A stretch of 64,000 nt of DNA from Chryseobacterium gleum (GTDB lineage: Bacteria; Bacteroidota; Bacteroidia; Flavobacteriales_F; PHOS-HE28). Position 1 is the stretch's first letter. Each line of letters starts with the position of its first letter. The DNA is taken from the NCBI GenBank assembly GCA_945872795.1, contig CAMCAZ010000010.1, positions 2,135 through 66,134 of the forward strand, written 5' to 3'. The translations under genes and the position numbers were made by a program. Shown here one piece after another: positions 10,858 to 46,638 of this stretch. The notes beneath the pieces were generated by a model that did not search any database, was not told the DNA's origin, and saw nothing but the letters and a program-made list of their open reading frames with translations.

Positions 10858-10877
10858 GTTCCAGAACGTTCATTGAC

Positions 10878-29228: not shown

Positions 29229-29316
29229 GCGGTGAGCGCCGATCCGGCCACTACGGCCATGGTGGGCATGGCGTTGCTGCGGCTCGGTAACACGCGGGAC
29301 CAGGGGGGGCAGGCAG

Positions 29317-30411: not shown

Positions 30412-30474
30412 GGTTTTGGGTTTTGTTTCCTGATGACGCATCGGGGTGTCGTTCCGCTGCCTCTGTAGGGATGG

Positions 30475-33400
30475 TCAGTTCGCCCCATAGCGGGGATCTT
30501 GTTTCCACGGGAGCTTCTCCATGTGTTCCACGCTCAGGGAGCAGTGCCCGAATTCCTCCTCCACCTTGCCCGTGAGGCGATAGACGCCGCGCCCCCGGAA
30601 CGGATACTTCGCCTCCACATTGGGGAACTGCGTGCTGTCCCAGAAATCACCTGCCGGGTCGATGAAACTGCCGAAGCTCATGCGTTCCCCGGTGCCGGTC
30701 CGCGTGGGCTTCACGTGCACCACATAACCCAGCATGGTCACCGTGCGGCCGTTATGGGCAGGCATATCGCGGGCCAATATCACAGGAGGTGTGATGTGTG
30801 AAGTGTTTGGTGTGAACTGTGAAGTGGTCGCATTCCCATCGCGCCTTCGCGAAGCCTTCGGTGAAGCGAGGTCATCCGTTTGTCCGATCACCTGTTCGTC
30901 CGATCCGCCCTTGACCAGTAGGAAGGGATCGCACAGCGGGAAGCCGAGCAGTTCCAGTTCGTCATAGGCATCGCTGAGGTCGAAGTGCTGGAGTTCTGGC
31001 AGCTTCGTTTGCGGAGTTTTGGTGATGAAGAGGTCGACGCTGCGCTCGATGGCCTTCGCGCCGGGATGCAGCAGCGTGAGGTCCCACAGCAGCTCGGGTT
31101 TGCTCTTTCCGGTGAAGCGGAAGGCTCCCACGCGGATCAGCATGCGGGCCTGTTCCACGCCGATGGACACGCGGCGCAACAGGTCGGGGAGGTCGGCGAA
31201 GGGGCCGTGACGGCGGCGGTCCGTGAGGATGCGTTCCACCGTGGCGGAGTCCAGGGATCTGATGTTCCGGAGACCGAGATAGATGCTGGCCTTTAGCCGT
31301 GGGCTACTGGCTTCTGGCCGATCATCGGAACGGCCAGAAGCCAGCGGCCAAGGGCCAGCAGCGTGCAACGTGCAGAGCTCCCCGCTCCGGTCCACGCACG
31401 GTGCCTCGATCACCGCCCCGGCGCGTTTCGCCTCGTGCAGGTAGAACTCCGTGTGGTAGAAGCCGCCGAAGTTGTTCGCCACGGCCACCATGAACTCCAG
31501 CGGGTGGTAGGCCTTCAGGTAGAGGCTCTGATAGCTCTCCACCGCATAGCTGGCGCTGTGGCCCTTCGCGAAGCTGTAGCCGGCGAAGCTCTCGATCTGC
31601 CGCCAGATCTCGGCGCTCTCCTCCGCCGGGTAGCCCTTCTTCATGCAGTTGTCGAAGAAGCGCTCCTTCACGCGTTGGAACTCCTCCCGGCTGCGGTACT
31701 TGCCACTCATGCCGCGACGCAGGATGTCGGCCTCGGCCAGCGTGAGCCCCGCATACAGGTGCGCCACCTTGATCACGTCCTCCTGATAGACCATCACTCC
31801 GTAGGTGTCGGGCATGATCTTCAGCATCGCCGGGTGCGCCTGCTTGCGCCGTTCGGGATCGCGGTGCCGCAGGATGTACTCGCGCATCATGCCGCTCTGC
31901 GACACACCGGGTCGGATGATGCTGCTCGCCGCCACCAAGGTCAGGTAGTCCTGCACGCCCAGCTTCTTCAGCAGCATCCTCATGGCCGGGCTCTCCACAT
32001 AGAAGCAGCCGATGGTGTCGCCGGTGCGAAGGAGTTCGTTGATCTTCGGATCGTGCTTGAAGCGTTCGATGGCGTGAATATCGATCAGGGGTCGACCCAG
32101 TGGGTCGACGGTACGGGTGCTTCGACCATACGTAAGCGCCATCACTGCACCCGTTCCGATCGCCGTTTCAGGTTCCGGCTCGCTGGCCATCTGTGATGAG
32201 GTGCAATTCCCATTTTCTGATCGTCTGATCATCTGATCATCTGATCCGCATTCCACGAGCTCCACCGCATCCCGTATATGCCCCAGGCCCCGCTGGCTGA
32301 GGATGTCGAACTTATACAGCCCCAGGTCCTCGGCCTCGAGCATGCTGAACTGCGTGGTGGCGAAGCCCTTCGGCGGTAGGTGCAGCGCGGTGTAGTGGGT
32401 GAGGGGCTGCTCGCTGATCAGCACGCCGCCGACGTGGATGCTCAGGTGGTGCGGATGCTCATGGAAGTGCTCCGCGTAACGCAGGATGGTGCGGGCGATG
32501 CGTTCGTTGTCGATCTCCACGCTGCCGCCGTTCGAGGCCTTCGCGTTGTCGCCGCGCCCGATCCAGCGCGAGTGACCCGCATCCCCTTCGGCGAGCGCGT
32601 CGATGTCCGCCGGCGGAAGGCCGAAGACCTTGCCCAGTTCGCGCACCACGGCGCGGCGCTGGTACGTGCTGTACGTGGCGAGCAGCGCGACCCTGCGCTG
32701 TGCACCGTAGGTGTCGAAGAGGTACTGCGTTACCTGGTCACGGTCCTTCCAACTGAAGTCCAGGTCGAAGTCGGGCGGGCTGCTCCGGCTGGGGTTGATG
32801 AAGCGCTCAAAGTAGAGGTCGAGCTCGATGGGGTCCACGTCGGTGATGCCCAGGCAATAGGCCACCAAGCTGTTGGCGCCACTGCCGCGCCCCACGTGGA
32901 AGAAGCCCTTGCGCTTCGCGAAGCGGATCAGGTCCCAGTTGATCAGGAAGTAGCTCACGAAGTCCTTCTGGGCGATCACGGTGAGTTCGCGATCCATACG
33001 GTCCATCACCTTCTGCGAAGGTGCGGGATAGCGGCGAAGCAACCCCGCCTGGGTCTCCGTGCGCAGCAGTTCGAGGTCCGCTGAAGCATCATTGCTCCAG
33101 GTCCTCCGGTTCTTGCTCTTGCCATGGGCGAAGTGCACATCGCACTGGTCCATCAGGCGGCGCGTGTTCCACACCAGCTCGGGCACATCGGCGAAGGCGG
33201 TGCACACCTGCTCCTCGCTCAGGAAGCGGTTCTCCGGTACTGAGACATGTGCTGTCGGTGTGGTGCTCAGCAGGGTGTTGGTGTCCACCGCACGTTTCAA
33301 GCGGTGCACGTTGAAGTCGCGTTTGCCCAAGGGCACATCACTGTGGAAGGTGGCTGTGACCAGGGCGAGCAGCTTCTCTTTGCGTGCCATCCACGGCGAG

Positions 33401-33825
33401 AAGCGCAGGCGGTTCACATCGCCCGACCGCACGCCGATGAACTCGTTGGGGCGCAGTTTGGCCGGAATGTTCACGGCACCGTACAGGTAGATGATGAAGG
33501 CGTCCGGAAGTTCCGGTGCTTGTTCAGGAAGCGCGTTGCCGTCCAGCAACCGGTCCGTCAGCAGGGAGGCCAGCTGCTGCACTCCTGCGTTGTTCCGCGC
33601 GATGCCGATGTACAGCGTTCGTGCCCCCACTTTGAACTCGATCCCCGCCAAGGGCCGCACCTTGTATTTGTCCGCCAGCCGGAACAGGTCGCTCCAGCCC
33701 GCCGTGCAGTTGATGTCGGTGAGCGCCACCTGCTGAAGCCCCAGGTCGTGCACCTCCTGCAGCACCTGCTCGGGCGAGAGCACGCCGTGGTTGAGGCTGA
33801 ACCAGCTGTGGACGTTGAGGAGCAC
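30475..33825 (-). CDS. dnaE2: DNA polymerase III alpha-subunit family, error-prone DnaE2-like (1116 aa) with a 53-aa in-frame insertion
   Basis: N-terminal PHP domain, polymerase core motifs (GRGSGANSLVAYCLGITDVDP, FDLDF), OB-fold C-terminus. Length and N-terminus fit DnaE2 better than replicative DnaE. Confidence 0.75.
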   Translation of the reverse strand: MLLNVHSWFSLNHGVLSPEQVLQEVHDLGLQQVALTDINCTAGWSDLFRLADKYKVRPLAGIEFKVGARTLYIGIARNNAGVQQLASLLTDRLLDGNALPEQAPELPDAFIIYLYGAVNIPAKLRPNEFIGVRSGDVNRLRFSPWMARKEKLLALVTATFHSDVPLGKRDFNVHRLKRAVDTNTLLSTTPTAHVSVPENRFLSEEQVCTAFADVPELVWNTRRLMDQCDVHFAHGKSKNRRTWSNDASADLELLRTETQAGLLRRYPAPSQKVMDRMDRELTVIAQKDFVSYFLINWDLIRFAKRKGFFHVGRGSGANSLVAYCLGITDVDPIELDLYFERFINPSRSSPPDFDLDFSWKDRDQVTQYLFDTYGAQRRVALLATYSTYQRRAVVRELGKVFGLPPADIDALAEGDAGHSRWIGRGDNAKASNGGSVEIDNERIARTILRYAEHFHEHPHHLSIHVGGVLISEQPLTHYTALHLPPKGFATTQFSMLEAEDLGLYKFDILSQRGLGHIRDAVELVECGSDDQMIRRSENGNCTSSQMASEPEPETAIGTGAVMALTYGRSTRTVDPLGRPLIDIHAIERFKHDPKINELLRTGDTIGCFYVESPAMRMLLKKLGVQDYLTLVAASSIIRPGVSQSGMMREYILRHRDPERRKQAHPAMLKIMPDTYGVMVYQEDVIKVAHLYAGLTLAEADILRRGMSGKYRSREEFQRVKERFFDNCMKKGYPAEESAEIWRQIESFAGYSFAKGHSASYAVESYQSLYLKAYHPLEFMVAVANNFGGFYHTEFYLHEAKRAGAVIEAPCVDRSGELCTLHAAGPWPLASGRSDDRPEASSPRLKASIYLGLRNIRSLDSATVERILTDRRRHGPFADLPDLLRRVSIGVEQARMLIRVGAFRFTGKSKPELLWDLTLLHPGAKAIERSVDLFITKTPQTKLPELQHFDLSDAYDELELLGFPLCDPFLLVKGGSDEQVIGQTDDLASPKASRRRDGNATTSQFTPNTSHITPPVILARDMPAHNGRTVTMLGYVVHVKPTRTGTGERMSFGSFIDPAGDFWDSTQFPNVEAKYPFRGRGVYRLTGKVEEEFGHCSLSVEHMEKLPWKQDPRYGAN
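32089..32247. repeat. 159-bp interspersed repeat (copy A) inserted in-frame inside dnaE2
   Basis: GGTCGACCCAGTGGGTCGAC palindrome, ACGGGTGCTTCGACC block, CCATTTTCTGATCGTCTGATCATCTGATCATCTGATCC tail. Related copy at 46674-46795 and partial copies at 43408-43559. Confidence 0.8.
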
Positions 33826-33891
33826 GGATCATAGATCGACAGGATATACGTCGATCTGTTGATCATAAGGTAAGCGATCGACACTGCTGGC

Positions 33892-36800
33892 TTACAGCAC
33901 CAATCGATCATCCTCCCCCTCCCGGTCGAAGAACAAGTGGTCCGGGTCGAGCAAGACCTCCAAGGGCTTCAGGGACGTGGTGATGTGAACGTGGTTCTTC
34001 CCGCTGAGCGAACGTACCCGTTGCTTCACCTCTTTACCGCCTTCCACCCGTACACTGACATCGATCCAGTCGTTCATCGGCACCTCCGTTTCCTTTCCCG
34101 AGGGATCGGCATGGAGCTTCGCGCAGGTGATGGAAGCGGTAACGGTCCACGACCCATCCGTATGCTGTACGGCCGAGGCGGAGGACAGTGCGTTCCTGTG
34201 GAAGGTGATCTGCTCCAGACCATCCACCAACAGGTAGTGCAGACTGTCCGGGGTCACGGCCTCCAACGCGCGATACAGGTCAAGCGTGGTGGGGTAGGGG
34301 GCTTCACCGAAAGCGAAGGAATCCACCATCGATCGATAAGCGGAATTCACCTGTTCCTCGCCGATCAGGTCTCGCAGGGCATACATCACCACACTGCCTT
34401 TGTTGTAGTGGATGTACTGCTGGTCCTCCACCCGCATCAGCGGCAATTCCCCAATGCCTTCCTGTCCCCGACCGCGTAGGTAGTTGTCGCGCTCGTACTT
34501 CAGGAAGCGGCGCATCGCCTTGCGACCATACTCCTTCTCCATCACCATGAGCGCGGTGTATTGCGCCATGCTCTCCACGAGCATGGTGGATCCCTGCATG
34601 CGCGGCCCCAGCACCTGGTGGCCCCACCATTGATGGGCCACCTCGTGCGCCACCACGTAGTAGACCATGTCGATGCGGCTGGTGTCGCGCAGGTCGGTGA
34701 TGAAGCCGATGGCCTCGCTGTACGGCATGGTGCCCGGGAAGGATTGCGCGAAGCGGCGGTACCTGGGGAACTCGATGATGCGGGCCACCTCATGCTGATA
34801 GGGGCCGAATTCGGTGGAGGCATAGCTCAGTGCGTCACGCATGGCCTTCAACATGCGCGGAACGTTCGTGCCGTGCTCCGGATGGTGGTACACCTCCAAG
34901 GTGACCGGGCCGGCCTGCTCACGGGCCACTTGATAGCGCGCGCTCAGCACCGCCCAGAAGTTGAAGATGGGTGCCTGGCAGACGTAGCGGTACCAGCGTT
35001 TTCCATCCGCCGTCCAGTCCTTCACCAGGGTCCCCGGTGCGATACCGATCTGGTCCGGTGCGGTGCCGATGGTACAGGCGAAGCGGATGCGGTCGGCATG
35101 GTCCATGGTCTCGTTCGTGGCACGGTCACGCGGATCATCGCTCAAGGGTGCGGTGCGCGGTCGCACCGGTAGGCCGGCCTTTCGACGTTCGCCCGGTTCG
35201 GACAGCTCCACTTGGTCCTGGTAGCCGATCATGGGCAACAGGTCCATCGTGTTCAAGAAGGTCCCGTTCTCCACCAATGACAGGAACTCCACATCGTTCG
35301 TGAAGCCCTTGGGCGCCCATTCCCCGGTGACCACGACCCGTACGGAGTCGCCGGTGCTGAGGGAGCGATCCAAGCGGAACATCCGCTGGAAACGGGCGCT
35401 ATCGTTCAGCACCAAGCGGGCGCTCGGCACCTCGAAGCTCATGTGCATGTGATCGGGCAGGCTGAACCACAACGTATCCACCGGAGCGTCACCCTTGTTG
35501 GTGAGCATCATCTCAGCCGTGTATCGGATGCTGCGTTCCTCGGGCTCAAGCTCCACGGTGATATCCACGGCGGTGAAGTGTGGAAGAGCGGTGTTGGTGA
35601 AGCGCTTGTAGGTCCGTTCGTAGTCGACCTGGAGCGCCTCCGTATCCTGTTCGGTGACCGGTCGGTTCAGGATACGGGTGTTGTAGAAGCCGATGAGCAG
35701 CAACACGACCCACGCGCCGAATGCCAGAGCTCCCGTTCTCCAGGATCGCTTCCATCGGATCCCCGCGATGCGCCAGCGCCAACCCCAAGTGGTCTCACCA
35801 CCGCGCACCACGAAGAGCGAGGCGATGAAGAGCAGGCACACAGCGAAGGCGAGCCAGTAGGCCCGGAAGAACGTCCAGGGCATCATAAATGGACCGAAGC
35901 CGTTCATGTCCGAGTACAGCAGCCGAGGTCCGCCATAGAACACCAGTAGGTTGGACTCCACCTTCAGGAAGCGCCAGATCAGCGTGTTCACAGCGAAGAG
36001 CACGACGAACAGGCCGAAACCGACGTACTTATGGTGAACGAGCGTTTGGATGGTCAAGGCCACCATGGACCAGAACGCGAACGCGATGACGCCGGGCAGG
36101 ATGAAGCCCAGCAGGTAGGTCACGGGCTGGTTGTCGGTGTAGCCCTGCGCCAGTTGACCGATCACCCCGATCACGGCCATGAGTGTGAGGACGAACGCCC
36201 CGACAAGGATGAGCGTGCTGAGCTTGGCCAACAGGGGGAATGAGGTGCGCACAGGAAGCGCGTTCATGATCCCCTCCAGGCCGGCATCGCGATCACGCCA
36301 CAGGAGTTCACCGCTGTAGAAGGTGATCAGCACCATCACGAACAACATGGACATGCCCCGCAGCATCTCGGCCACGTGGTAGGTCACCGGCCAGCTGTGG
36401 TTGCCGAAGGCCGAGGTCACTTCGCTCAGGCTGATGGCGGTCATCAGTAGGCCGAGGCCAGTGATGATCCAGAACACGGGTGAGCCGAGAATGCCACGCA
36501 GATCGGAACCTATCAAAGCAAAGAAGCGCCTCCACTGGGATGTCCACCCATAGTGGAGTTGGATGTTCGGGAGCGTCTTATCCGCTCCGGAGTGCAGCGC
36601 TTCGTCAGCGACCTTGAGGTGACCGGGTCGCCGCCGTTCGGTGAACGTGAAGCGGAGGTACCCCACAAGGAAGATCACCGCTGCGATCCCCAGCCAGAGA
36701 AAGCGATTCCAGATGAGGGCGCCGCTCAATGGGAGCAGGGCGCTGTTCCGTTCATCCACGCTCCAGTAGCGCGTCACTTCATCCAGTGCCTGGTTGGCGA

Positions 36801-37428
36801 AAGGGTCCAAGAGCGCGGCAAGCAGACCATTGTCCACTTCCGTGGAATAGGCCGTGGCGATCACGTTGAGCACGACCAGGGCTATGGACGTGACGAACGC
36901 CGCTGCCGCCGAGCGTACCACGGTGGCCACCGCGAACATCACCGCGCTTTGGAAGAGGATGCTGGTCACCGCGAACAAGAGGAAGGTCTGCGCATGGACC
37001 ATCGGATCGTTCGGACCGAAGCGGATGGGGTCGCCCGAAGGGATCCAACTGCCGACGATGAGGCCCGCGGAGATCCCCAGCGTTGGGATGAGGGCCACCA
37101 CGGTGCTGCCCAGGAAGCGGCCCAGCACGTACTGGCGTTTACTGACCACCGTGCTGAACACGATGTCCGAGGTATGGTGTGCGAAATCGCGGATCGCGGT
37201 GGCGTTCACGAACGCCGTGACCATGGGGAGCCAAAGGAAGGCCAGGTTGGCATAGAGCTCATAGACGTGTGAGGGCGAGTTCACGTGCACCATCCCCGGG
37301 CTACCCTTGCCGCCGCTCTCGAACACCGCCAGTAAGCAGGCGAATGTGAAGGCCATGCCGAGGAAGATCCACAGCTGGGGTTGACGCAGCCAGAAGCGGA
37401 GCTCGAAGTGGATGAGGCGTGTGATCAT
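33892..37428 (-). CDS. fusion protein: N-terminal ABC-2-type permease (multi-TM) and C-terminal M1 zinc aminopeptidase domain (paralog 2)
   Basis: ~550-aa polytopic N-terminus; C-terminal gluzincin motif VVAHEVAHQWWGHQV…E (Glu at +20 rather than the canonical +19) and GxMEN-like region; paralogous to 37599-41210. Confidence 0.75.
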   Translation of the reverse strand: MITRLIHFELRFWLRQPQLWIFLGMAFTFACLLAVFESGGKGSPGMVHVNSPSHVYELYANLAFLWLPMVTAFVNATAIRDFAHHTSDIVFSTVVSKRQYVLGRFLGSTVVALIPTLGISAGLIVGSWIPSGDPIRFGPNDPMVHAQTFLLFAVTSILFQSAVMFAVATVVRSAAAAFVTSIALVVLNVIATAYSTEVDNGLLAALLDPFANQALDEVTRYWSVDERNSALLPLSGALIWNRFLWLGIAAVIFLVGYLRFTFTERRRPGHLKVADEALHSGADKTLPNIQLHYGWTSQWRRFFALIGSDLRGILGSPVFWIITGLGLLMTAISLSEVTSAFGNHSWPVTYHVAEMLRGMSMLFVMVLITFYSGELLWRDRDAGLEGIMNALPVRTSFPLLAKLSTLILVGAFVLTLMAVIGVIGQLAQGYTDNQPVTYLLGFILPGVIAFAFWSMVALTIQTLVHHKYVGFGLFVVLFAVNTLIWRFLKVESNLLVFYGGPRLLYSDMNGFGPFMMPWTFFRAYWLAFAVCLLFIASLFVVRGGETTWGWRWRIAGIRWKRSWRTGALAFGAWVVLLLIGFYNTRILNRPVTEQDTEALQVDYERTYKRFTNTALPHFTAVDITVELEPEERSIRYTAEMMLTNKGDAPVDTLWFSLPDHMHMSFEVPSARLVLNDSARFQRMFRLDRSLSTGDSVRVVVTGEWAPKGFTNDVEFLSLVENGTFLNTMDLLPMIGYQDQVELSEPGERRKAGLPVRPRTAPLSDDPRDRATNETMDHADRIRFACTIGTAPDQIGIAPGTLVKDWTADGKRWYRYVCQAPIFNFWAVLSARYQVAREQAGPVTLEVYHHPEHGTNVPRMLKAMRDALSYASTEFGPYQHEVARIIEFPRYRRFAQSFPGTMPYSEAIGFITDLRDTSRIDMVYYVVAHEVAHQWWGHQVLGPRMQGSTMLVESMAQYTALMVMEKEYGRKAMRRFLKYERDNYLRGRGQEGIGELPLMRVEDQQYIHYNKGSVVMYALRDLIGEEQVNSAYRSMVDSFAFGEAPYPTTLDLYRALEAVTPDSLHYLLVDGLEQITFHRNALSSASAVQHTDGSWTVTASITCAKLHADPSGKETEVPMNDWIDVSVRVEGGKEVKQRVRSLSGKNHVHITTSLKPLEVLLDPDHLFFDREGEDDRLVL

Positions 37429-37598
37429 TCAACGCGTGATGAAGCGAAAGCGACCCAATAACGAACGCGATCGAACAGGGAATGCGCAACGGCCCGTTCC
37501 GTTACGGACGCATCCCCGTTCGACCGATCAAGGCCGCAACCACTGGACGACCGACCTCATTCAACTTCCAATCACCGATCGTTCCGATCGACCGTTCC

Positions 37599-40500
37599 TC
37601 ACTCCACCTCCACCTTCTTCACATTGTCCTGCATCACGCGATCGAAGAACAGGTTGTCGCGGTCGATCACGGCCTGCATGGGTTTCTCCTGTACGATGAA
37701 GGTCAGCTTGTTCACACCCGAGCGCAGGCGCAGCCGTTGGTGTACGAGCGGCACCTCGTTCAGCGACTTGTCCGCCTTCCTTCCCAGCTTTGGGTAGCGC
37801 AGGATGCTGACGTCCATCCAGTCGTTCATGGGAGCTGGTGTCTCGCGACCGAGGGAATCGGCATAGTTCTTCTCACCGAAGAGTTCGAGCGTCACTTCGT
37901 AGGTGCTGTCCGGCAACATGCGGGCGCTGGCCTTGTCCACCCGGTTGTTGTAAAGCGTGATCCGTTTGAAGCCATCGATCAGCAGGTACTCCAGGCTATC
38001 AGGTACCACCTGCTCCAGTTCGCGGTACATGTCCAGCGCGGTGGGGTATGGCGGCTCCGCATAAGCGAAGGTGTCCACCAGCGCCTTGAAGGCCCTGTTC
38101 AGGTTCTCCTCGCCCACGAAGTCGCGCAGGCCGTAGAGCACCACGCTCGCCTTGTTGTAGTGCACGTACGGCTGGTTCTCCACCTCCATCAGGGGCACCT
38201 CCTTCAGCTCCTCGGTGCCGCGTGCACGCTGGTACCGGTCGCTCTCCAGCTTCAGGAACTTGCGCATCTGCGCCCGGCCGTACTCGTCCTCCATCACCAT
38301 CAGGGCACTGTACTGGGACATGCTCTCGCTGAGGAGGGTGCTGCCCTGCATGTCGGCGCCGATCACTTGGTGGGCCCACCACTGGTGCCCCATCTCGTGC
38401 GCCACCACGTAGAACACCATGTCGATGTCGGTGGTGTCGCGCAGGTCGGCGATGAAACCGATGGACTCGCTGTAGGGCATGGTGCCCGGGAAGGCCTGGG
38501 CGAAGCTGAAGTACCGGGGGAACTCGATGATGCGCGCCTGCTTGTGGCGGTAGGGGCCGAAGTTGTCGCTGTAGTACTGGAGCGACTTGCGGATGCTGTT
38601 CGCCATGCGCGGCACGTTCTCGGCGTGGTCCGCGTGGTAATAGACCTCCACGTCCACACTCTGCCCTGAGCCTGTCGAAGGGTGCCACTTCTCACGGTGC
38701 ACCGCGTAGTCGGCGCTCATGAACGAGTAGAAGTTCATGCTCGGATGGTCCACCACGTACTCGAAATAGCGTTTGCCGTTCTCCGTCCACTCGCGCTTCA
38801 GGCTGCCCGGTGCGATGGCGATCTGGTCGGGCGTGGTGCTGATCACGGTGCGCACGGTCACCCAGTCACTGTTCGGCACCAGGTAGGTCTGCATGCGCGC
38901 TGCGCTATCGGCTGAGAGGCGCGGCATGCGCTCCTTCGCAGGAAGCCCGCGGTCCTTACGCTCGCTCTTGTCCTGCAGTTCGCCTCCGGCCGAGTAGCCG
39001 ATGCCGGGCAGCAGGTCCATGTTGTTGAAGAAGGTGCCGTTGTGGTTCAGTTGCGCCACGCGGGGCTCGTTCTCGAAGCCCTTCTCCACGTGGGTGGCGG
39101 TGACGGTGAAGCGTAGGTCCTCGCCGGGCATCAGGGGCCTGGCGAGCTTGTAGATGCGGTAGTTCACGCGCTCGTCGTTCAGCACTAGTTGAGCGCCGGG
39201 CAGGTCCACCTCCTGCTCGATGCCGCCGCCGCCCATGTTCAGGTGCAGCGAGTCGATCGGAGCGTTGCCCTTGTTGTGCACGGTGACCTCCGCCACGGCG
39301 TGCAGGCTGCGCTCGGCGGGTACCAGGTCGATGGTGAAGCGGATGTCGGTGTAGTGCGGCTGCAGCATGCCCTCGTACCGCTTGTAGGTGCGCTCGTAGT
39401 ATTCCAGGTCGTCCTCCATGGTGGAGGCATCGGGCATCTCGTTCAGCACCTTGGTATTGTAGTAACCCCAGGCGCCGAGCAGCACCCAGGCGGAGAGGGC
39501 GGGGATGGCGTATCGCTTGTTGGTGCGCAGGCGGCCCCCGGCGATGGCCAGTCGCTTGCGGAAATGTGTTTCCCGGCCGCGCACCCAGAAGAGCAGCGTG
39601 ATCACGAGCAGCACGGCGGAAAAGGCCCACCAATAGGCCTTGAACCACAGCCAGCCCGTGAGCGCCGTGCCATAAGTGTTCATGTCGCTGTAGCTGAGGT
39701 TCGGCGCGCTGTTGAACTGCACCAGGTGGCTCGTGACCTTGAGCGCCGGCCACAGGATGAGGTTCACGGCCAGCACCACGAGGAACACCGCATAGCCCAC
39801 GTACTTGTTATTCACCAGCACGTGGCAGAGGAACGAGAGCGCGGCCAGCGCCCCGAAGCCCAGCAGGCCGGGCACGATGTAGTAGCCGAGGTAGACACCC
39901 GGCTCGATGCGCGTGTAGCCGTTGATGAGCTGGAAGACCATGCCCCCCAGCGCAGTGACCAGCAATACGGTGAGCAGCAACAGCAGCAATGCCGTGTACT
40001 TCGCCAGCAGCCCGATGCCCAGCGGCAGCGGCGTGGCGTCATGCACCTCGTCCAGCTTGGGCTCGCGCTCTTTCCACACCAGCAGCCCGCTGTAGAAGAC
40101 GATGAGGATGGTGGTGAAGAGACCGAAGCCCCCTTCGATGACGTCGATGACGTTGTAGGTGACCGGGTGTATGGTGTTCTCGTAGAGCGAGGTGCTGAAC
40201 GAGAGGTTGAGGAACATGTTGAGCAGCCCTATGCCGGTGACGAGCAGGAAGGCCACGCCGCGGGTCATGCCGGTATAGTCGTTCCACGCAATGCGGCGGA
40301 ACTGCCGGATGCGCGCCACGGCGCCGTGGCTGCGATCCACCCGGGGCAGGGGCACGGCTGCTGGGGCCGCGACGGGACTCACGGCGGGCTCGGCCAGGGG
40401 CGCACGCTGCCGCCGGTCGGTGAAGCTGAAGCGCCAGTAGCCGAAGGCGAAGATGCCGGCGGCGACCGCGGTCCAAAGGATGCGGTTCCACAGCAGCACA

Positions 40501-41210
40501 CCGCTCATCGGCAGCAGCAGCGTGTTCTTGTCGTCCACGGTCCAGTAGCGGGTGATATAGCTGAATGCGGTGCTGCCGAAGGGGTCCAGGAGCGAGGCCA
40601 GCACCTGGTTCTCCATCTCGGTCATGAGCGAGCCGGCCACGCCGCTGCCCACCATGATGAGCACGGCCGTGATGAAGGCCGCCGCCGTGCTGCGCACCAG
40701 TACGGCCACCGCGAAGATCACGGCAGCGCTGAAGACGATGTTGGGCAGGGTGAGGTATAGGTAGGCCTGCAGGTGCGCGCCCATCAGGTTGGGGCCGATC
40801 TTCTCGGGATCGAGCCACCACATCCAGCTGCCCACCACGATGCCGAGCGACACCCCCAGCATGGGCAGGCTGGCGACGAAGGTGCTACCCAGGAAACGGC
40901 TCAGCAGGTAGTGCCGCTTCTTCAGCGGGGTGCTGAACATGATCTGCTGCGTGTTGTACGTGAAGTCGCGGATGGCGCTCGCGTTCACGAAGGCGGTGAC
41001 CATCAGCAGCCCGAAGAAGGCCAGGGTGGCATAGTAGACGAACACCTTGTAGGGCGCGTTGTACTTCACGTTGGCCAGTTCGGCACCCACCTGCACCTCG
41101 TCGATCACCAGGCTCAGGTAGCTCAGCAGGGCGAAGAGCAGCAGGAAGATGTACGCCATGGGCTGCCTCAGCCAATGGCGCAGTTCGATGAGGAGGAGCC
41201 GCCAGGTCAT
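37599..41210 (-). CDS. fusion protein: N-terminal ABC-2-type permease and C-terminal M1 zinc aminopeptidase domain (paralog 1); start overlaps the ATPase gene stop (ATGA)
   Basis: Same architecture; VVAHEMGHQWWAHQV…E; 4-nt overlap with upstream ABC ATPase gene indicates translational coupling. Confidence 0.75.
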   Translation of the reverse strand: MTWRLLLIELRHWLRQPMAYIFLLLFALLSYLSLVIDEVQVGAELANVKYNAPYKVFVYYATLAFFGLLMVTAFVNASAIRDFTYNTQQIMFSTPLKKRHYLLSRFLGSTFVASLPMLGVSLGIVVGSWMWWLDPEKIGPNLMGAHLQAYLYLTLPNIVFSAAVIFAVAVLVRSTAAAFITAVLIMVGSGVAGSLMTEMENQVLASLLDPFGSTAFSYITRYWTVDDKNTLLLPMSGVLLWNRILWTAVAAGIFAFGYWRFSFTDRRQRAPLAEPAVSPVAAPAAVPLPRVDRSHGAVARIRQFRRIAWNDYTGMTRGVAFLLVTGIGLLNMFLNLSFSTSLYENTIHPVTYNVIDVIEGGFGLFTTILIVFYSGLLVWKEREPKLDEVHDATPLPLGIGLLAKYTALLLLLLTVLLVTALGGMVFQLINGYTRIEPGVYLGYYIVPGLLGFGALAALSFLCHVLVNNKYVGYAVFLVVLAVNLILWPALKVTSHLVQFNSAPNLSYSDMNTYGTALTGWLWFKAYWWAFSAVLLVITLLFWVRGRETHFRKRLAIAGGRLRTNKRYAIPALSAWVLLGAWGYYNTKVLNEMPDASTMEDDLEYYERTYKRYEGMLQPHYTDIRFTIDLVPAERSLHAVAEVTVHNKGNAPIDSLHLNMGGGGIEQEVDLPGAQLVLNDERVNYRIYKLARPLMPGEDLRFTVTATHVEKGFENEPRVAQLNHNGTFFNNMDLLPGIGYSAGGELQDKSERKDRGLPAKERMPRLSADSAARMQTYLVPNSDWVTVRTVISTTPDQIAIAPGSLKREWTENGKRYFEYVVDHPSMNFYSFMSADYAVHREKWHPSTGSGQSVDVEVYYHADHAENVPRMANSIRKSLQYYSDNFGPYRHKQARIIEFPRYFSFAQAFPGTMPYSESIGFIADLRDTTDIDMVFYVVAHEMGHQWWAHQVIGADMQGSTLLSESMSQYSALMVMEDEYGRAQMRKFLKLESDRYQRARGTEELKEVPLMEVENQPYVHYNKASVVLYGLRDFVGEENLNRAFKALVDTFAYAEPPYPTALDMYRELEQVVPDSLEYLLIDGFKRITLYNNRVDKASARMLPDSTYEVTLELFGEKNYADSLGRETPAPMNDWMDVSILRYPKLGRKADKSLNEVPLVHQRLRLRSGVNKLTFIVQEKPMQAVIDRDNLFFDRVMQDNVKKVEVE

Positions 41211-42094
41211 GCCGCCACGGTGTTGGGGGTGTCCAGGATGCGGCTGAAGAAGACGTCCTCCAGCCCGGGCTCGGCCGCAGTGAAGCCGTCGCCCGGGGGC
41301 GTGTCGCTGAGGATGTGGATGGAGGGCCGCCCACTGATGAGCTTGTTGCTGATCACATGGTATCGGGCATGGTGATCCTCCAGCTCGGCCTTGGCGATGC
41401 TCTTCTCCCAGATGCGGCCCTTCACCTCGCGCAGCGCATCGTTCGGCGATCCGGCGAACAGCAGGCGTCCCTTGTTGATGATGGCCATGTTGCGGCAGAG
41501 TTCCTGCACGTCCTGTACGATGTGGGTGCTGAGGATCACCACCACGTTCTCGCCGATCTCCGTGAGCAGGTTGTAGAAGCGGTTTCGCTCGCCGGGGTCG
41601 AGGCCGGCAGTGGGTTCGTCAACGATGATGAGCTTGGGTTCGCCGATCAGCGATTGGGCGATGCCGAAGCGCTGCTTCATGCCTCCACTGAATCCGGCAA
41701 TGCGGCGCTTGCGGTGCTCCCACAGGTTCACCTTCTGCAGCAGCGCCTCCACCAGGTCCTTCCGCTGGCCGTTGTTGATCACCCCCTTCAACAGGGCGAT
41801 GTGGTCGAGCATCTGGTAGGCGCTCACCCGCGGGTACACCCCGAACTCCTGTGGCAGGTAGCCGAGCACCTTCCGCACCTCGTCCTTCTGGCGCAGCACA
41901 TCGATGTTCCCGAGCATCACCGTGCCGGCATCGGCCTCCTGCAGCGTGGCCAGGATCCGCATGAGCGAGCTCTTGCCCGCACCGTTGGGACCCAGCAGGC
42001 CGAACATGCCGGTGGGGATGGTGAGGGTGACGTTGTCCAGCGCCTTCACGCCATTGGCGTAGGTCTTGCTGAGGCCGTTGATGACAAGTTCCAT
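41207..42094 (-). CDS. ABC transporter ATP-binding protein
   Basis: Walker A GPNGAGKSS, Q-loop, signature LSGGMKQR, Walker B IIVDEPTAGLD, H-loop. Confidence 0.9.
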   Translation of the reverse strand: MELVINGLSKTYANGVKALDNVTLTIPTGMFGLLGPNGAGKSSLMRILATLQEADAGTVMLGNIDVLRQKDEVRKVLGYLPQEFGVYPRVSAYQMLDHIALLKGVINNGQRKDLVEALLQKVNLWEHRKRRIAGFSGGMKQRFGIAQSLIGEPKLIIVDEPTAGLDPGERNRFYNLLTEIGENVVVILSTHIVQDVQELCRNMAIINKGRLLFAGSPNDALREVKGRIWEKSIAKAELEDHHARYHVISNKLISGRPSIHILSDTPPGDGFTAAEPGLEDVFFSRILDTPNTVAA

Positions 42095-42248
42095 GTGGGG
42101 TGTCGGAAATTATGCTCGCAAGATGCACAGGGAAGTGCCAACCTGATGCTCGAATACATGAGCGGTCGGGAGGGTCGGACGGGCGGTGGTCGGACAGGTA
42201 GCCTGCCTGTCCGCAGACAAACCGCCGACGCGGGAAACGCGGGGTATA

Positions 42249-43161
42249 TCACTCCTCCCCGAAGAAGTCGCTGTCGATGCGCTTCACAGCGTAGGTGCGC
42301 TGGGTGGTGACGCCGAGATCGTGGTCGATCATCAGTTGGGTGAGCTCCTCACCGTCGAGAAGGACGATCTTGGTCTCGTTGCGGGGTATGTACTCGCGGG
42401 CTTCTTTGCTGAACGAAGAGGTGGTGATGAAGATGCCCTTCTTTGCGCCCTGCCCGGCCAATGCTCCTACGAACTTCTGGATCTCTGGACGGCCCACGGT
42501 GTTGCCGGTATTCCACTTCTTGGCTTGGATGTAGATGATGTCCAGCCCCAGTTTGTCCTCTTTGATGGTGCCGTCGATGCCTTCGTCGCCACCCTTGGTA
42601 AGCGCACGACCTGCGTCCTTCACGGAACCGCCGTATCCCATGCGTACGAGCAGCTGCACCACGAGGCGTTCGAAGTCCATCCAGGTGAGGGATCGGACTT
42701 TTGCGAGGAGTTCTTGGCCGATGGTTTCCCGGATCTGTTCGTATGCACCATCCAGTAATTCTTCCGGTGTGCGCGAGTTGTCCGCGTCGGCGGTCTGGGC
42801 TGAAGGAGTATTATCCCGCTTCATGGTCTGGAACTCCACGAATTCCGGGAAGCGTCTGAGGTAGCCTACGTCGATGCGTTCCGGTTTTTGCTTCAGTATC
42901 TCCAAGCCACGAGGCGTTATCTGCATCATCGCGCGTTTGGGTGAAGCGACCAGACCGGCCTTCTTGAGATACGTACGTGCCCATCCTACGCGGTTGTCGA
43001 ACGCGGCCTGCATACCGCTCTAGCATCTCACGTCGCTCCTCCTCGGTCAGTTTGAACTGTGTGGCCAAGCCCTCCACAACATCACGAAGTGCATGCACCC
43101 TGTTGTCGGATAGATAGCTCAACAAGGGCAACATGATGCTTTGATAATCGGGAACGGCCAT
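42249..43161 (-). pseudogene. mrr: Mrr-family type IV restriction endonuclease, interrupted by a frameshift near 43010
   Basis: Mrr N-terminal winged helix (MAVPDYQSIMLPLLSYLSD…) in one frame (43161-~43010) and Mrr catalytic domain (…NRVGWARTYLKKAGL…GIDG…IYIQAKKW) in another frame (42249-43013). Confidence 0.7.
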
Positions 43162-43615: not shown

Positions 43616-43740
43616 CACGGCCGCAATGCCGAGCAATAGTTTCGGTTCCGTATTATTGCCATACGAACCAGTGCGGAGGTGCTGTGGCATTAGTCGGGAG
43701 CGCATGGCAGGATTCAGAGCGGTTCGAGAAGCTCTTCGTC

Positions 43741-45381
43741 ATGAAAACCCTTTACACCCTTTTGGCGACCTCGGTGATCCTGAGCACGGATCTCGTGGCA
43801 CAGACGTTCTCGAACACCACAGCAGCTGCCTGCAACACGTGGGATTCGGGGAATGCCTACACGGGTTTTCAACGGACCATCGCAGTGGCCGCCTTGCCTA
43901 CGCCGTTGGGCGCTTCGGGAACGGTCTTGCGCCAAGTGAACCTGCAACTGGGCACTGCGGCGTGCAAAGGCAACCTGTCCACGTACTACGCACGCATCGT
44001 ATCACCTACGGGTACTGTCATCCAGTTGTTCGGGCCGTTCACCACGACGAGCACGAGCCAATGGATGAACATCAAGTTCCGAGATGACATCGCCTTGGAA
44101 CGTGTCCGCGACTACAGCACGACCACGCAACAGGGCTACCACCCGTGGAACGTAGGCTACTGCCGCACGGATGCGGTCAATGCGTTCACCACGGTGAACG
44201 GGGAAGACCCGAACGGCAACTGGACCTTCCAATTGGCTGAGAACACGACATCCGAGGTCTCGTTCCAACGTGTTGAACTCGTCTTCGGGCCACCCATCGT
44301 CGTGACCGATGTGACCGGTGGCTCAGGAAACGATTTCTGCAGCGGGGCCACCTGTATCGATGGATTGTCCGTGATCCGCGGAACGAACCTCGCTTATCCG
44401 CCACTTGATCCCTTTTACCCGGGCGATGTGGTGGGTGGCTGTGGTTGGAACGGTGCGAACAACAATAACGGATGGTACCGCTTCGTCGCATCCGGAACCA
44501 CAGCGAACATCACTGTGAGCGGCATGGTGAACACCACCGGTACAGGCACGGCGGACATGCAACTGGTCGTGGTCCAGCAGACCAACCCCATCTGCTCCGG
44601 TCCTCCGACCCTAGTGCCGACGGGAGGCTGTCCGGACCCCCCCGGTGTGAACAATACATCTTATGCCGCGCCGAACGGTGGTGTTGGTACAATGGCCAAT
44701 GTTTACTTGAACGGGATCACTGCGAATTGCGAGTTCAACCTCTCGGGGCTTACGGCCGGGAACAGCTATTACCTGATCATCGATGGGAACGGTGGTTTGT
44801 CATCCACCTTCTACATCGAGATGCCGAGTGGCGGGATCGACTGCAACATCCTGCTGCCGGTCACGTGGACGGCTTTCAACGTGGAATGCGAGATGGGCAA
44901 CCGGCGGATCTCCTGGACGGTGGCTACCCAGCAGGACAATGATCATTTCGAAGTGGAACGCAGTCTGGACGGCTCCTCTTGGAATGTGTTCGCTACTGTT
45001 CCCGGGGAAGGGACCACGCAAACGACCATGTCCTATGAAGTGCTGGACGACAACAGCGATATGCTCTTCGAACAGCCACTGATCTATTACCGGGTGAAAC
45101 AAGTGGACGTGAACGGGAACTTCAGCTTCACGCCGGTCGAGGCGAGCAGTTGTTCTGTGCTGCTGTACCCCAATCCGGCAAGCGATCACATCATCGTGGC
45201 TGTGCCCTTTGCCGGTGTCGATGTGCAGCTAGTGGATGCCATCGGACGGGTGGTGGAGATGCGCAAGACGCAAGGCACTACCATTCGGATGGACATCGGC
45301 CATCTGGCCTCCGGTTATTATGCGTTGCAGCTCCTCAGTTCTGGTGACCTGCTTGGCTCGGCCGTGGTGGTCAAGTTCTGA
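43741..45381 (+). CDS. secreted protein with proprotein-convertase P-domain-like module and T9SS type-A C-terminal sorting domain
   Basis: Signal peptide MKTLYTLLATSVILS; P-domain-like GEDPNGNWTFQLAENT; C-terminal LLYPNPASDHIIVAVP… CTD. Confidence 0.65.
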   Translation: MKTLYTLLATSVILSTDLVAQTFSNTTAAACNTWDSGNAYTGFQRTIAVAALPTPLGASGTVLRQVNLQLGTAACKGNLSTYYARIVSPTGTVIQLFGPFTTTSTSQWMNIKFRDDIALERVRDYSTTTQQGYHPWNVGYCRTDAVNAFTTVNGEDPNGNWTFQLAENTTSEVSFQRVELVFGPPIVVTDVTGGSGNDFCSGATCIDGLSVIRGTNLAYPPLDPFYPGDVVGGCGWNGANNNNGWYRFVASGTTANITVSGMVNTTGTGTADMQLVVVQQTNPICSGPPTLVPTGGCPDPPGVNNTSYAAPNGGVGTMANVYLNGITANCEFNLSGLTAGNSYYLIIDGNGGLSSTFYIEMPSGGIDCNILLPVTWTAFNVECEMGNRRISWTVATQQDNDHFEVERSLDGSSWNVFATVPGEGTTQTTMSYEVLDDNSDMLFEQPLIYYRVKQVDVNGNFSFTPVEASSCSVLLYPNPASDHIIVAVPFAGVDVQLVDAIGRVVEMRKTQGTTIRMDIGHLASGYYALQLLSSGDLLGSAVVVKF

Positions 45382-45390: not shown

Positions 45391-46638
45391 CTACGTCCTC
45401 CTATTCGCCAACAACACCGGTGCCTGCCCATCAAAAGGGTTGTCCATCCGCCCGATGCTCTTCGCATCCATGCCGGCCGCGCGCATCACGGTGCGGTCGC
45501 CGAAGCGCTTGCGGATCTTGTCCATGGCCTGGTACAGGTCCATGGCCTCCTGCGTGTCGGTGAAGGCATCCATCTGGTGGCCGCCACCCACCAGGTGACT
45601 GAAGCGCACGCCGATCAAGCGGATCCGTTGGCGACGGTCGTACAGCGCGCGGAAGAGGTCGTGTACTGCGGGTAGGATGATGTGGTCGCAGGCCGTGTAG
45701 CCCACGCGCGCTTGTTTGGTGTGCGTGTTGAAATCGGCGTAGCGGATCTTCACCGCGATGCAGCTGGTGAGCTTGTCGCCCTTGCGCAATTGGAAGGCGA
45801 GGCTTTCGGCCATGGCGGTGAGCAGGCCTTTCAGTTTCACCACATCGATGGTATCGCGCTCGAAGGTGCGCTCCGTGCTGATGCTCTTGCGCTCGTGCCA
45901 GGCGATCACCGGACTATCATCGATGCCGTTGGCCTTGCGCCACAGCACAGGCCCGTGCTCGCCCAACAACCGGTGCATCAGGTCCACCTGCAGCTCTTGT
46001 AGCGTGTGGATCTTCGCCACGCCCATGCTGCGCAACAGGTGCGCGGTCTTCTCGCCCACGCCGGGGATGCGTTCTATGGGCATGGGCGCCAGGAAGGGTT
46101 TCTCCGTGCCGCGCTCCACGTACCATTCGCCCGCGCCGTTCTTCGCCTCGCCGGTGGCCACCTTGCTCACCGTCTTGTTGATGCTCAGCCCGAACGAATT
46201 CGGCAGCCCGCTATCCTTGATGATCTTCTGCCGCAGCTCCACCGCCAGCTTCCTGCTGCCGTGGAATTTGTCGGTGCCGCTCAGGTCCACGTAGAATTCG
46301 TCCACGCTGCTCTTCTCGAACAGCGGCACGTTCGCGCGGATGATCTCCGTCACCTCATCGCTCTTCTTCAGGTACGCTCCGCTGTCGCCGCGCAGGATGA
46401 TCGCCTCCGGGCACAACTGCTTGGCCATCTTCATCGGCATCGCGCTGCGCACCCCGAAGGCCCGCGCCTCGTAGCTGCAACTGGCCACCACGCCGCGGTC
46501 GCTGTCGCTCCCGATCAGCACGGGTCTCCCGTTCAGCTTCGGGTTCTCCAGCCGTTCCACGCTCACGAAGAAGGTATTGAGGTCCAGGTGGAGGATGGTT
46601 CGTTCGCCGTTGATCATTCTACATTCTTCATTCATCAT
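45391..46638 (-). CDS. dinB: Y-family DNA polymerase IV
   Basis: Catalytic LDLNTFFVSVE and SVDEFYVD motifs; little-finger domain; 415 aa. Confidence 0.85.
   Translation of the reverse strand: MMNEECRMINGERTILHLDLNTFFVSVERLENPKLNGRPVLIGSDSDRGVVASCSYEARAFGVRSAMPMKMAKQLCPEAIILRGDSGAYLKKSDEVTEIIRANVPLFEKSSVDEFYVDLSGTDKFHGSRKLAVELRQKIIKDSGLPNSFGLSINKTVSKVATGEAKNGAGEWYVERGTEKPFLAPMPIERIPGVGEKTAHLLRSMGVAKIHTLQELQVDLMHRLLGEHGPVLWRKANGIDDSPVIAWHERKSISTERTFERDTIDVVKLKGLLTAMAESLAFQLRKGDKLTSCIAVKIRYADFNTHTKQARVGYTACDHIILPAVHDLFRALYDRRQRIRLIGVRFSHLVGGGHQMDAFTDTQEAMDLYQAMDKIRKRFGDRTVMRAAGMDAKSIGRMDNPFDGQAPVLLANRRT

Follow-up and report, generated by a model that had tools for sequence, protein, structure and literature searches.

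Locus organization

The window, the whole 64,000-nucleotide stretch of DNA analyzed here, carries three intact open reading frames on its minus strand, encoding an ABC ATPase followed by two large fusion proteins; the coordinates of these genes refer to this strand, and the reading frames, their positions and their translations agree with an earlier note on this DNA. The ATPase gene (41207..42094, 295 aa) was assigned from PF00005 and its motifs, and its stop codon overlaps the start codon of the next gene as ATGA (41207..41210), an overlap reported previously and read again in the sequence. FusA (37599..41210, 1203 aa) joins a double ABC-2 permease to a thirteenth transmembrane helix (TM13) and an M1-like zinc peptidase. 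The 170-bp spacer that follows (37429..37598) was verified, and beyond it lies FusB (33892..37428, 1178 aa), a diverged tandem paralog with the architecture of FusA. As first described, the N-terminal half of both proteins matches ABC-2 models of Pfam and the C-terminal half matches Peptidase_M1, and the motifs HEMGHQWW and HEVAHQWWGHQV are both found in the translations. A scan of positions 33700-42400, which does not cover Bacteroidota promoters, found neither a sigma-70-like promoter nor an intrinsic terminator.

The permease-peptidase fusion is genuine and neither a chance event nor an assembly artefact, a concern raised with the original observation, because the same full-length fused architecture is present in 146 of the best 150 listed 50%-identity cluster representatives and at 79 genomic loci; the substitution pattern of FusB, described below, agrees. 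Clustering at 50% identity gives the family no fewer than 1,839 clusters; its Gram-negative lineages number in the thousands, and its members come from Bacteroidota, Acidobacteriota, Gemmatimonadota and Proteobacteria. Of 72 related loci for which upstream sequence is available, 71 pair one ATPase with one fusion, while the tandem second fusion is limited to one Flavobacteriales clade. Across the 79 loci no third conserved gene that would hint at a substrate was found beside the module, be it a precursor peptide, a regulator or an immunity gene, nor was a conserved solute-binding protein. The architecture is already catalogued at NCBI, under the name "ABC transporter permease/M1 family aminopeptidase", though full-text literature searches found no published functional study of the family, in line with the earlier remark that it is rarely, if ever, discussed functionally.

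The ABC ATPase

The translation of the ATPase contains a Walker A motif (GPNGAGKS at aa 35), a signature motif (FSGGMKQR, aa 135-142), a Walker B motif with the catalytic Glu (IVDEP, aa 156-160) and an H-loop (STH, aa 189), which together identify it as an ABC ATPase, and it matches PF00005 at 101.6 bits (E 6.9e-29, cut-off 25). Its best sequence matches among solved structures are the nucleotide-binding domains (NBDs) of ABCA1, ABCA7, ABCA4 and ABCA3, with E values from 4e-56 to 4e-48. Other solved chains, among them OpuCA, NosF, Rv1218c and LptB, match at 8e-35 or weaker; Rv1218c is one of the better bacterial matches, and NosF is only a moderate one (E 2e-32). Identity with GldA of the gliding-motility system GldA/GldF/GldG was rejected (TIGR03522, 180.6 bits against a cut-off of 402.6), as was identity with DrrA, whose cut-off the score does not reach. 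Among the PADLOC anti-phage defence models, FusA and FusB had no match and the ATPase had generic P-loop matches only.

The membrane half

The membrane part of FusA (aa 1-588, 39447..41210) was delimited by hydropathy, Pfam and the model of FusB, from which the helix boundaries were transferred. It runs from TMD1 (about 40425-41210) through an Arg/Lys-rich cytoplasmic linker, TMD2 (about 39570-40328) and an Arg/Lys-rich loop to TM13 (about 39450-39524), which ends in an invariant YYNT motif. The corresponding part of FusB spans 35665-37428, with TM13 at about 35668-35742. The AlphaFold2 model of FusB (pLDDT 79.5, pTM 0.71) and the hydropathy profile both give 12 + 1 = 13 helices, more than the six that the earlier note had set as a minimum. 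Matches to ABC-2 permease models, which had also been anticipated, are marginal: with ABC2_membrane_3, FusA scores 31.7 bits against a cut-off of 31.6 and FusB falls below it at 23.1, and with ABC2_membrane_4 the scores are 20.4 and 19.7 bits, respectively, against a cut-off of 27. The fold assignment thus rests on structure comparison. The top Foldseek match of the membrane half is Rv1217c, in an alignment of 583 columns that takes in both halves (TM-scores 0.52/0.61), and Cdr1 aligns over 448 residues. The six-helix module has the type V fold, and the two modules with a separately encoded ATPase correspond to a single-chain double ABC-2 permease of the Rv1217c type. On this modeling, the single chain of each fusion holds two ABC-2 (type V) membrane modules and a 13th helix. 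Compared directly by profile, the two membrane halves are only weakly similar (hhalign E 0.031). Conserved cytoplasmic segments are IRDF after TM2 and FYSG..W after TM8.

The predicted topology is supported by the distribution of charge. Lys and Arg make up 0.175 per residue of the predicted cytoplasmic loops and 0.051 of the periplasmic loops, a 3.4-fold difference over 25 sequences, and the flanks of TM13 carry a net charge of +4.7 before and +0.7 after the helix (148 sequences). TM13 is modeled in FusB as a continuous 25-residue helix with a pLDDT of 85-91. It is moderately hydrophobic (mean Kyte-Doolittle 1.34, FusA TM13 lying under the 1.5 threshold), and 47% of aligned sequences have a charged residue within the segment. 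TM13 would carry the chain back across the membrane, so that the C-terminal 600 residues, the M1-like part of both fusions, are predicted to be periplasmic, above the exit of the membrane domain.

The peptidase half

The M1-like part of FusA (aa 589-1203, 37599..39446), delimited by Pfam and alignments, and that of FusB (33892-35664) consist of a beta N-domain, a thermolysin-like catalytic domain and a C-terminal beta sandwich, without helical domain IV. Peptidase_M1 scores are 45.8 bits for FusA and 49.5 bits for FusB (cut-off 27.7), and Foldseek relates the fold to PepN, ERAP1/2 and IRAP over about 600 columns with E about 1e-17. Both proteins have the gluzincin pairing of HExxH with a downstream Glu: HEMGH (38385-38399) and the third zinc ligand in LSES (38322-38333) in FusA, HEVAH (34633-34647) and LVES (34570-34581) in FusB. 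This Glu lies 19 residues past the second His (X19, canonical X18), one residue further than in the canonical M1 peptidase of the window. The catalytic Tyr is found in HYNK (38151-38162 in FusA, 34399-34410 in FusB), where the stretch HYNKG corresponds in the alignments to VSYNKG of ERAP2 and to AYEKG of the canonical M1. Among 262 full-length homologues, HExxH and the Tyr are conserved at 100% and the third-ligand Glu at 99%. Across 146 representatives, conservation peaks in the catalytic domain, and the periplasmic loops rank above the transmembrane segments and the cytoplasmic loops.

The exopeptidase motif GXMEN, in contrast, is lost. GAMEN/GGMEN of ERAP2 and the canonical M1 align with FAQAF in FusA (38490-38504, followed by PGTMPYSE at 38466-38489) and FAQSF in FusB (34738-34752), so that Ala or Ser occupies the position of the Glu, and F-A-Q-[AS]-F is itself kept at 86-98% in the 262 homologues. 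Pfam found no C-terminal helical domain (ERAP1_C/Leuk-A4-hydro_C) in either fusion, and the FusB model has beta strands only after residue 1074, up to its end at 1178. Model confidence drops below 50 at 889-914, the altered GXMEN region, and at 991-1006. Since both the exopeptidase motif and the helical cap are gone, the sequences leave the label "aminopeptidase" unproven; the loss of GXMEN is by itself no proof of endopeptidase activity either.

The stand-alone lipoprotein M1 peptidase noted earlier at 18863-20731 is real and canonical, with Peptidase_M1_N, M1 and Leuk-A4-hydro_C domains, the motifs GGMEN and HEMAH and a lipobox-like LLSC. Its Peptidase_M1 score is 156 bits, compared with 46-50 bits for the fusions.

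FusA versus FusB

FusA and FusB are 46% identical over their full length. Most genomes have a single fusion, and its ortholog here is FusA. The B-type copies group together in one clade on a long stem and only ever adjoin an A-type copy. From FusA to FusB the zinc region changes by M to V and G to A inside HExxH and by A to G after WW; the Glu-for-Gly-type change ascribed to FusB is absent, and both zinc motifs are intact. Of the 56 columns conserved at 95% or more in the 146 family representatives, FusB retains 54, and a dN/dS of 0.16 against its ortholog at locus L001 indicates purifying selection.

Comparison with known systems

In Rv1217c-Rv1218c, a type V ABC exporter of Mycobacterium tuberculosis, the two TMDs of the Rv1217c chain bind a homodimer of Rv1218c (PMC11406275; PDB 8k1m-8k1p), and there, as in the fusions, both six-helix ABC-2 domains lie in one polypeptide and the ATPase is separately encoded. 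Sequence identity with the fusion membrane half is only about 15%, the 13th helix and the extracytoplasmic enzyme domain of the fusions are missing, the substrate is a drug (rifampicin) and the host is an actinobacterium. The two modules per fusion and their full-length superposition on Rv1217c make it likely that the functional unit is two ATPases with a single fusion rather than an assembly of both fusions. Another close structural match is PmtCD, the phenol-soluble-modulin exporter of Staphylococcus aureus (PDB 6xjh, 9q2n), which strips amphipathic peptides from the membrane and confers immunity to them (PMC9974410). PmtD is a single six-helix module that homodimerizes, whereas the fusions have two modules per chain, and PmtCD has no peptidase, so its peptides are released intact.

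In NosDFY (PDB 7o0y, 7qba), NosD is a separate beta-helix protein with no fused peptidase, and identity with this system was rejected: the nos context is absent and the 79 loci have no third conserved gene. NosDFY functions in copper-center assembly. The PCATs share with the fusions the concept of an ABC exporter covalently joined to a cargo-processing peptidase. Theirs is a cytoplasmic, N-terminal cysteine peptidase (C39) on a type IV exporter and cuts a double-glycine leader before export, whereas the fusions carry a C-terminal zinc peptidase, predicted to lie outside the membrane, on a type V exporter; with no C39 match, this identity was also rejected. The eukaryotic ABCA lipid transporters, whose NBDs match the ATPase better by a wide margin than any other solved chain, have the type V membrane fold and a large extracytoplasmic domain, as do the fusions. 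They are, however, single 2000-residue chains with the NBDs fused in, unlike the separate ATPase here, and their extracellular domains, which have no enzyme function, sit between TM1 and TM2. Finally, the M1 aminopeptidases (Escherichia coli PepN, ERAP1/2, IRAP, LTA4H) share the three N-terminal domains by fold, HExxH, the downstream Glu and the catalytic Tyr, and differ from the fusion domain in GXMEN, the X19 spacer, the capping helical domain IV/C-domain and the membrane tether.

Proposed machine and alternatives

The analyses support the composition of the machine; its transport-and-cleavage mechanism is inferred. The ATP-driven complex with a tethered peptidase proposed earlier survives as an ABC permease fused to an M1-type domain in an operon with its ATPase, but not with both fusions together. 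The leading reading, put forward tentatively, is a two-component type V ABC extractor whose periplasmic M1-fold peptidase would cut cargo at the exit. An ATPase homodimer would dock on one fusion, which supplies 2 x 6 helices as Rv1217c does, and the one ATPase would be shared by two alternative complexes, one with FusA and the other with FusB. On ATP binding, a peptide of hydrophobic or amphipathic character would be squeezed from the inner membrane or the cytoplasm and passed directly into the lidless, open active site. This cargo could be an antimicrobial peptide, a peptide fragment residing in the membrane or an N-blocked lipopeptide. Cleavage would resemble that of an endopeptidase or an N-blocked-peptide hydrolase, not of a classical aminopeptidase, giving an extract-and-destroy (or extract-and-process) device for envelope housekeeping or protection. 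The membrane domain has, as modeled, an exporter/extractor fold, and the peptide removal and immunity of PmtCD provide a supporting analogy for extraction.

A clearly less probable account is mechanotransmission, in which the ATP cycle opens, closes or positions the lidless peptidase and no substrate is moved, so that periplasmic or outer-leaflet-anchored proteins are cut on demand. The ABC part would then act much as NosFY does on NosD, or FtsEX on activators of cell-wall hydrolases. The picture drawn in the earlier note, one complex of both fusions, each contributing one permease domain and an exopeptidase for N-terminal trimming coupled to import or export, suits the adjoining fusion genes behind a single ATPase gene, the Peptidase_M1 match and the NCBI name. 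It is nonetheless very improbable and already largely refuted, as each fusion has two modules of its own and aligns full-length with a single-chain double permease, nearly all genomes have one fusion per ATPase, GXMEN is lost throughout the family, the cap is absent, and the exporter fold without a conserved binding protein nearby speaks against import.

Placing the M1 domain in the cytoplasm, with a 13th helix that does not span the membrane and processing before export as by the C39 domain of PCATs, is unlikely. The modest hydrophobicity of TM13 and its frequent charged residue would fit, and bacterial M1 peptidases are commonly cytoplasmic, but the charge drop across TM13, its continuous modeled helix and the conserved periplasmic loops oppose this placement, and the cytoplasmic face must already hold two ATPases. 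That the domain serves without catalysis, for binding or as a scaffold, or that FusB is a decaying duplicate, is barely credible: nothing specific favors it, although the missing GXMEN and the low confidence of the model around the active site can be read that way, and it conflicts with the near-invariant zinc ligands, general-base Glu and catalytic Tyr and with the conserved columns and low dN/dS of FusB. Also unlikely is an ABCA-like lateral extractor of N-acylated or N-blocked membrane molecules that would feed an anchor-less, lidless M1 hydrolase. Candidates are leftover signal peptides, lipopeptides and amino-acid or dipeptide lipids, the last of which are made by Bacteroidota and other phyla holding the family, and LTA4H illustrates that the M1 fold can bind lipid. 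If true, this lateral extractor would represent a hitherto unrecognized system, widespread among diderm bacteria, that cleans up the envelope or remodels lipid headgroups, and it would put the M1 fold to a new catalytic use.

Gene Organization

The operon consists of three intact open reading frames on the minus strand, encoding an ABC ATP-binding protein of 295 aa (41207-42094; Pfam ABC_tran), FusA (37599-41210; 1203 aa) and FusB (33892-37428; 1178 aa). The stop codon of the ATPase overlaps the start codon of FusA in the sequence ATGA, and a spacer of 170 bp (37429-37598) lies between FusA and FusB. The intact frames and the overlap read in the sequence bear out the coupled three-gene operon proposed in an earlier note. 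FusA and FusB share 46% identity over their whole length, and both match ABC2_membrane_3 (~aa 56-219), ABC2_membrane_4 (~aa 320-479) and Peptidase_M1 (~aa 870-1055), in agreement with the permease-peptidase architecture that was claimed for them; the zinc motifs quoted in support are present. The "Glu-for-Gly-type change" ascribed to the zinc motif of the paralog is absent, as HEMGHQWWAHQV and HEVAHQWWGHQV differ only by M/V, G/A and A/G exchanges.

The operon is flanked by a DnaE-like polymerase gene (30475-33825, minus strand), which adjoins FusB, and by a gene for an Mrr endonuclease (42249-43013, minus strand). T9SS sorting domains encoded in the vicinity, along with the best-scoring MAG matches, assign the window to Flavobacteriales. 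A promoter and terminator scan of 33700-42400, uninformative for Bacteroidota promoters, found none. Antisense to the ATPase gene runs a 331-aa open reading frame (41315-42310, plus strand) that is longer than the ATPase frame itself and recurs in seven related loci; it is a shadow frame of a GC-rich gene and not evidence for a second gene.

A Conserved Two-Gene Unit and Its Tandem Copy

The ATPase and the fusions were located by tblastn in 79 fetched loci. Of the 72 loci whose upstream sequence extends for 900 nt or more, 71 have the ATPase gene directly upstream of the fusion on the same strand, at a median gap of 30 nt, and the single exception is a truncated contig. These upstream ATPases are 63-90% identical to that of the window. 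Clustering of all open reading frames from the 79 loci revealed no third conserved gene, and one fusion per ATPase is the rule in most genomes. The order ATPase, FusA-like copy, FusB-like copy is confined to the loci most closely related to the window (L001-L004, L022 and L026), and in a neighbour-joining tree the FusB-like copies group as a single long-stemmed clade next to the FusA-like clade of the Flavobacteriales. Decay of FusB into a pseudogene is ruled out, since its dN/dS against the L001 ortholog is 0.16 and it preserves, as FusA does, 54 of the 56 columns whose conservation across 146 representatives reaches 95% or more. A Flavobacterium laiguense locus (L049) carries two complete ATPase-fusion pairs in tandem (1596-6063 and 7007-11573), which is another route to paralogy than the window's one ATPase with two fusions. 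The FusA-like copy of L001 (4236-7825) aligns in two pieces lying in different reading frames, and the FusB-like copy of L022 (8001-11538) also aligns in two pieces; since the contig names suggest long-read assemblies, indel errors are likelier than pseudogenes.

The family is large. A word-indexed search returned 412 homologues of the fusion, and almost all of the 120 listed are about 1,200 aa long with the same Pfam pair. An exhaustive HMMER search with FusB against 50%-identity representatives gave 7,304 matches at E ≤ 1e-3, of which 1,839 reached E ≤ 1e-30, the best 150 being nearly all full-length, single-stretch alignments to proteins of about 1,200 aa. At least 589 matches were confirmed when each species was represented by one genome. 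Hundreds of full-length homologues thus rule out an assembly artefact or chimeric reading frame. Among the hosts identified by name are Flavobacterium, Spirosoma, Shivajiella, Fibrisoma, Algoriphagus, Ancylomarina, Paludibacter, Saprospiraceae, Chitinophagales and Kapaibacterium; the fusion is also found in Acidobacteriota, in Gemmatimonadota and, within the proteobacteria, in Rhodanobacter, Xanthomonadaceae and Massilia. One contig labelled as a Bifidobacterium breve MAG (L062, CALPIE020000011.1) nonetheless carries a Bacteroidota-like module that clusters with Flavobacterium sequences and is probably mis-binned or mislabelled.

The Membrane Half and the ATPase

Hydropathy profiles divide the membrane half into two sets of six hydrophobic segments joined by an Arg/Lys-rich linker; a very basic loop and then a 13th segment (TM13) follow. 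The AlphaFold2 model of FusB, built from a 25-sequence alignment (pLDDT 79.5, pTM 0.71), likewise contains 13 long helices. Residues 1-612 were also modelled on their own (pLDDT 74) for comparison with the PDB, where the best Foldseek match is Rv1217c (583 columns, TM 0.52/0.61), followed by PmtD, NosY, ABCG2, ABCA7 and CcmB. Pfam ABC-2 scores are marginal, with FusA just over the cut-off and FusB under it. In a profile-profile comparison the two membrane modules are collinear over 235 columns at a weak E of 0.031, so that the internal duplication rests on fold rather than sequence. Given these weak scores and the weak similarity between modules, the ABC-2 assignment rests on the fold, the helix count and the obligatory ATPase partner.

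The ATPase has the full set of catalytic motifs, as read in its translation. By sequence, its nearest relatives of solved structure are the nucleotide-binding domains of ABCA1, ABCA7, ABCA4 and ABCA3 (E 4e-56 to 4e-48), with all other solved chains, NosF, Rv1218c and LptB among them, at 8e-35 and weaker. Membership in GldA or DrrA was rejected, the scores falling under the cut-offs. Because a single fusion supplies both membrane domains, the expected complex comprises two ATPases and one fusion. This architecture and the phyletic pattern suggest that FusA and FusB most likely enter alternative complexes rather than the one heteromer envisaged previously.

The Peptidase Half

Foldseek aligns the peptidase half over about 600 columns with PepN, ERAP1/2, IRAP and PfA-M1 (E ~1e-17), covering the β N-domain, the catalytic domain and then a β sandwich. 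The model stops within this sandwich. The all-helical domain, which is the part that closes the M1 cavity, is missing, and likewise has no Pfam match. Across the motif region aligned for 262 full-length homologues, conservation is 100% for HExxH, 99% for the downstream zinc-ligand Glu and 100% for the catalytic Tyr; the Glu follows after a spacer of 19 residues, one longer than in the window's canonical M1 enzyme. Judged by these residues, the peptidase domain looks catalytically competent.

M1 aminopeptidases bind the free amine of the substrate through the Glu of GXMEN. Two independent alignments (HMM against ERAP2 and MAFFT against canonical M1) place G[AG]MEN opposite FAQ[AS]F, so that this Glu is Ala or Ser in the fusions. 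The replacement is itself conserved, at 86-98% in the 262 homologues. Model confidence drops below 50 at residues 889-914 and 991-1006, exactly around the altered motif region. The fused domain therefore lacks the GXMEN Glu and the helical domain, the two features to which M1 enzymes owe their N-terminal exopeptidase activity, and the aminopeptidase or exopeptidase activity assigned in the earlier note is not supported. More plausible is a predicted activity as an endopeptidase or as a hydrolase acting on N-blocked peptides.

An internal reference for this divergence is the third, stand-alone M1 gene (18863-20731, plus strand), correctly recognized before, whose product is a canonical aminopeptidase of the LTA4H type that has GGMEN and HEMAH and ends in a helical domain (Leuk-A4-hydro_C). 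It scores 156 bits against Peptidase_M1, versus 46-50 bits for the fused domains. A lipobox-like LLSC lies near its N-terminus.

Topology and Proposed Mechanism

With the N-terminus inside, the odd number of helices places the C-terminal 600 residues, and with them the peptidase, in the periplasm. Charge follows the same orientation: lysine and arginine make up 0.175 per residue of predicted cytoplasmic loops versus 0.051 of periplasmic ones (25 sequences), and around TM13 the net charge is +4.7 in the preceding loop versus +0.7 in the following stretch (148 sequences). TM13 is only moderately hydrophobic (mean Kyte-Doolittle 1.34), so the periplasmic placement predicted from sequence is probable rather than certain, and a peptidase half left in the cytoplasm is quite unlikely. 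Near-invariant residues across the family are also most frequent in periplasmic loops (4.2%, versus 1.9% in cytoplasmic loops and 1.3% in TM segments) and include the motifs LLDPFG, YW.V...N and YSDM, together with YNT at the outer end of TM13. This conservation fits a functional periplasmic face.

The best-supported reading, which we put forward tentatively, is that the exporter expels a membrane or cytoplasmic peptide or lipopeptide and the tethered peptidase cuts it at the exit. The type V exporter would move a hydrophobic or amphipathic (lipo)peptide out of the inner membrane or the cytoplasm, and the lidless zinc peptidase would cleave it as it emerges. Nearly all structural relatives of the membrane half are exporters or extractors, and there is a precedent in PmtCD, which rids the membrane of amphipathic peptides and provides immunity (PMC9974410). 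Extraction followed by cleavage is also in keeping with the ABCA-like ATPase, with the covalent tether and with the strongly conserved active site and periplasmic loops. M1 peptidases remove the leaders of class III lanthipeptides (PMC9828337), which shows that the fold is capable of more than N-terminal trimming. A role in a specific peptide-biosynthesis cluster fits less well than a housekeeping one, as the module is conserved in single copy across phyla; no neighbouring conserved gene in the 79 loci hints at a substrate. PADLOC returned no defence-system match for FusA or FusB.

Comparison with Known Systems

To our knowledge, PCATs are the only kind of ABC exporter joined to a peptidase. 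They have a type IV fold joined to a cysteine peptidase in the cytoplasm and offer a parallel in concept, while the module described here combines a type V exporter with a zinc peptidase predicted to lie outside. Rv1217c-Rv1218c is alike in composition to the ATPase and fusion, and PmtCD possibly so, but the module is a member of none of these three families. The peptidase half is homologous to the M1 family, yet lacks the GXMEN motif and helical domain of a classical M1 aminopeptidase. The system is an unstudied variant in which a type V ABC exporter bears, at its C-terminus, an M1-like peptidase that is predicted to be periplasmic and is devoid of GXMEN.

The fusion architecture is already catalogued in databases. 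One member is named "ABC transporter permease/M1 family aminopeptidase" at NCBI, many homologues are labelled as NosY-type permeases at JGI, and full-text literature searches found no publication about an ABC-2 permease/M1 fusion. The window adds one new member and a tandem paralog restricted to one clade. As a rigid unit of two genes, the module is present in 1,839 or more protein clusters at 50% identity, spanning Bacteroidota, Acidobacteriota, Gemmatimonadota and Proteobacteria. If extraction and cleavage are its function, it would represent a common Gram-negative route for clearing or detoxifying membrane-embedded peptides, and the database name would need correction, the defining aminopeptidase motif being missing. 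It also provides a natural system for following proteolysis after cargo leaves a type V transporter. Culturable hosts (Flavobacterium, Spirosoma, Shivajiella, Massilia and Rhodanobacter) make the proposal directly testable, and the module, whose mechanism is inferred, is well defined, widespread and experimentally tractable.

Neighbouring Genes

The DnaE-like polymerase scores 523 bits against a replicative DnaE cut-off of 1002 and 480 against 939 for error-prone DnaE2. A Y-family (IMS) polymerase gene (45391-46638, minus strand) lies upstream of the module on the same strand. Related loci from Flavobacteriales likewise have both polymerase genes in the surroundings of the module, and among the 79 loci adjacency to dnaE is limited to the Flavobacteriales clade; the arrangement is clade-specific synteny. 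The two may represent an ImuB/DnaE2-like mutagenesis pair split by the ABC operon and the Mrr gene. The Mrr_N match of the Mrr-type restriction endonuclease is confined to the last 40 positions of the domain, and its homologues occupy differing positions relative to the module in L002, L021, L023, L025 and L079, which suggests a mobile gene.

Elsewhere in the window, an 841-aa reading frame (21898-24423, plus strand) has a C-terminal AIM24 domain (aa 586-803) as its sole Pfam match, the N-terminal 585 residues matching none. Three proteins carry T9SS C-terminal sorting domains: a 565-aa protein of unknown function (43684-45381, plus strand), a ThuA-domain protein (28287-29387, minus strand) and a cupredoxin (29824-30441, minus strand). 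Their presence points to a Bacteroidota host that has type IX secretion.
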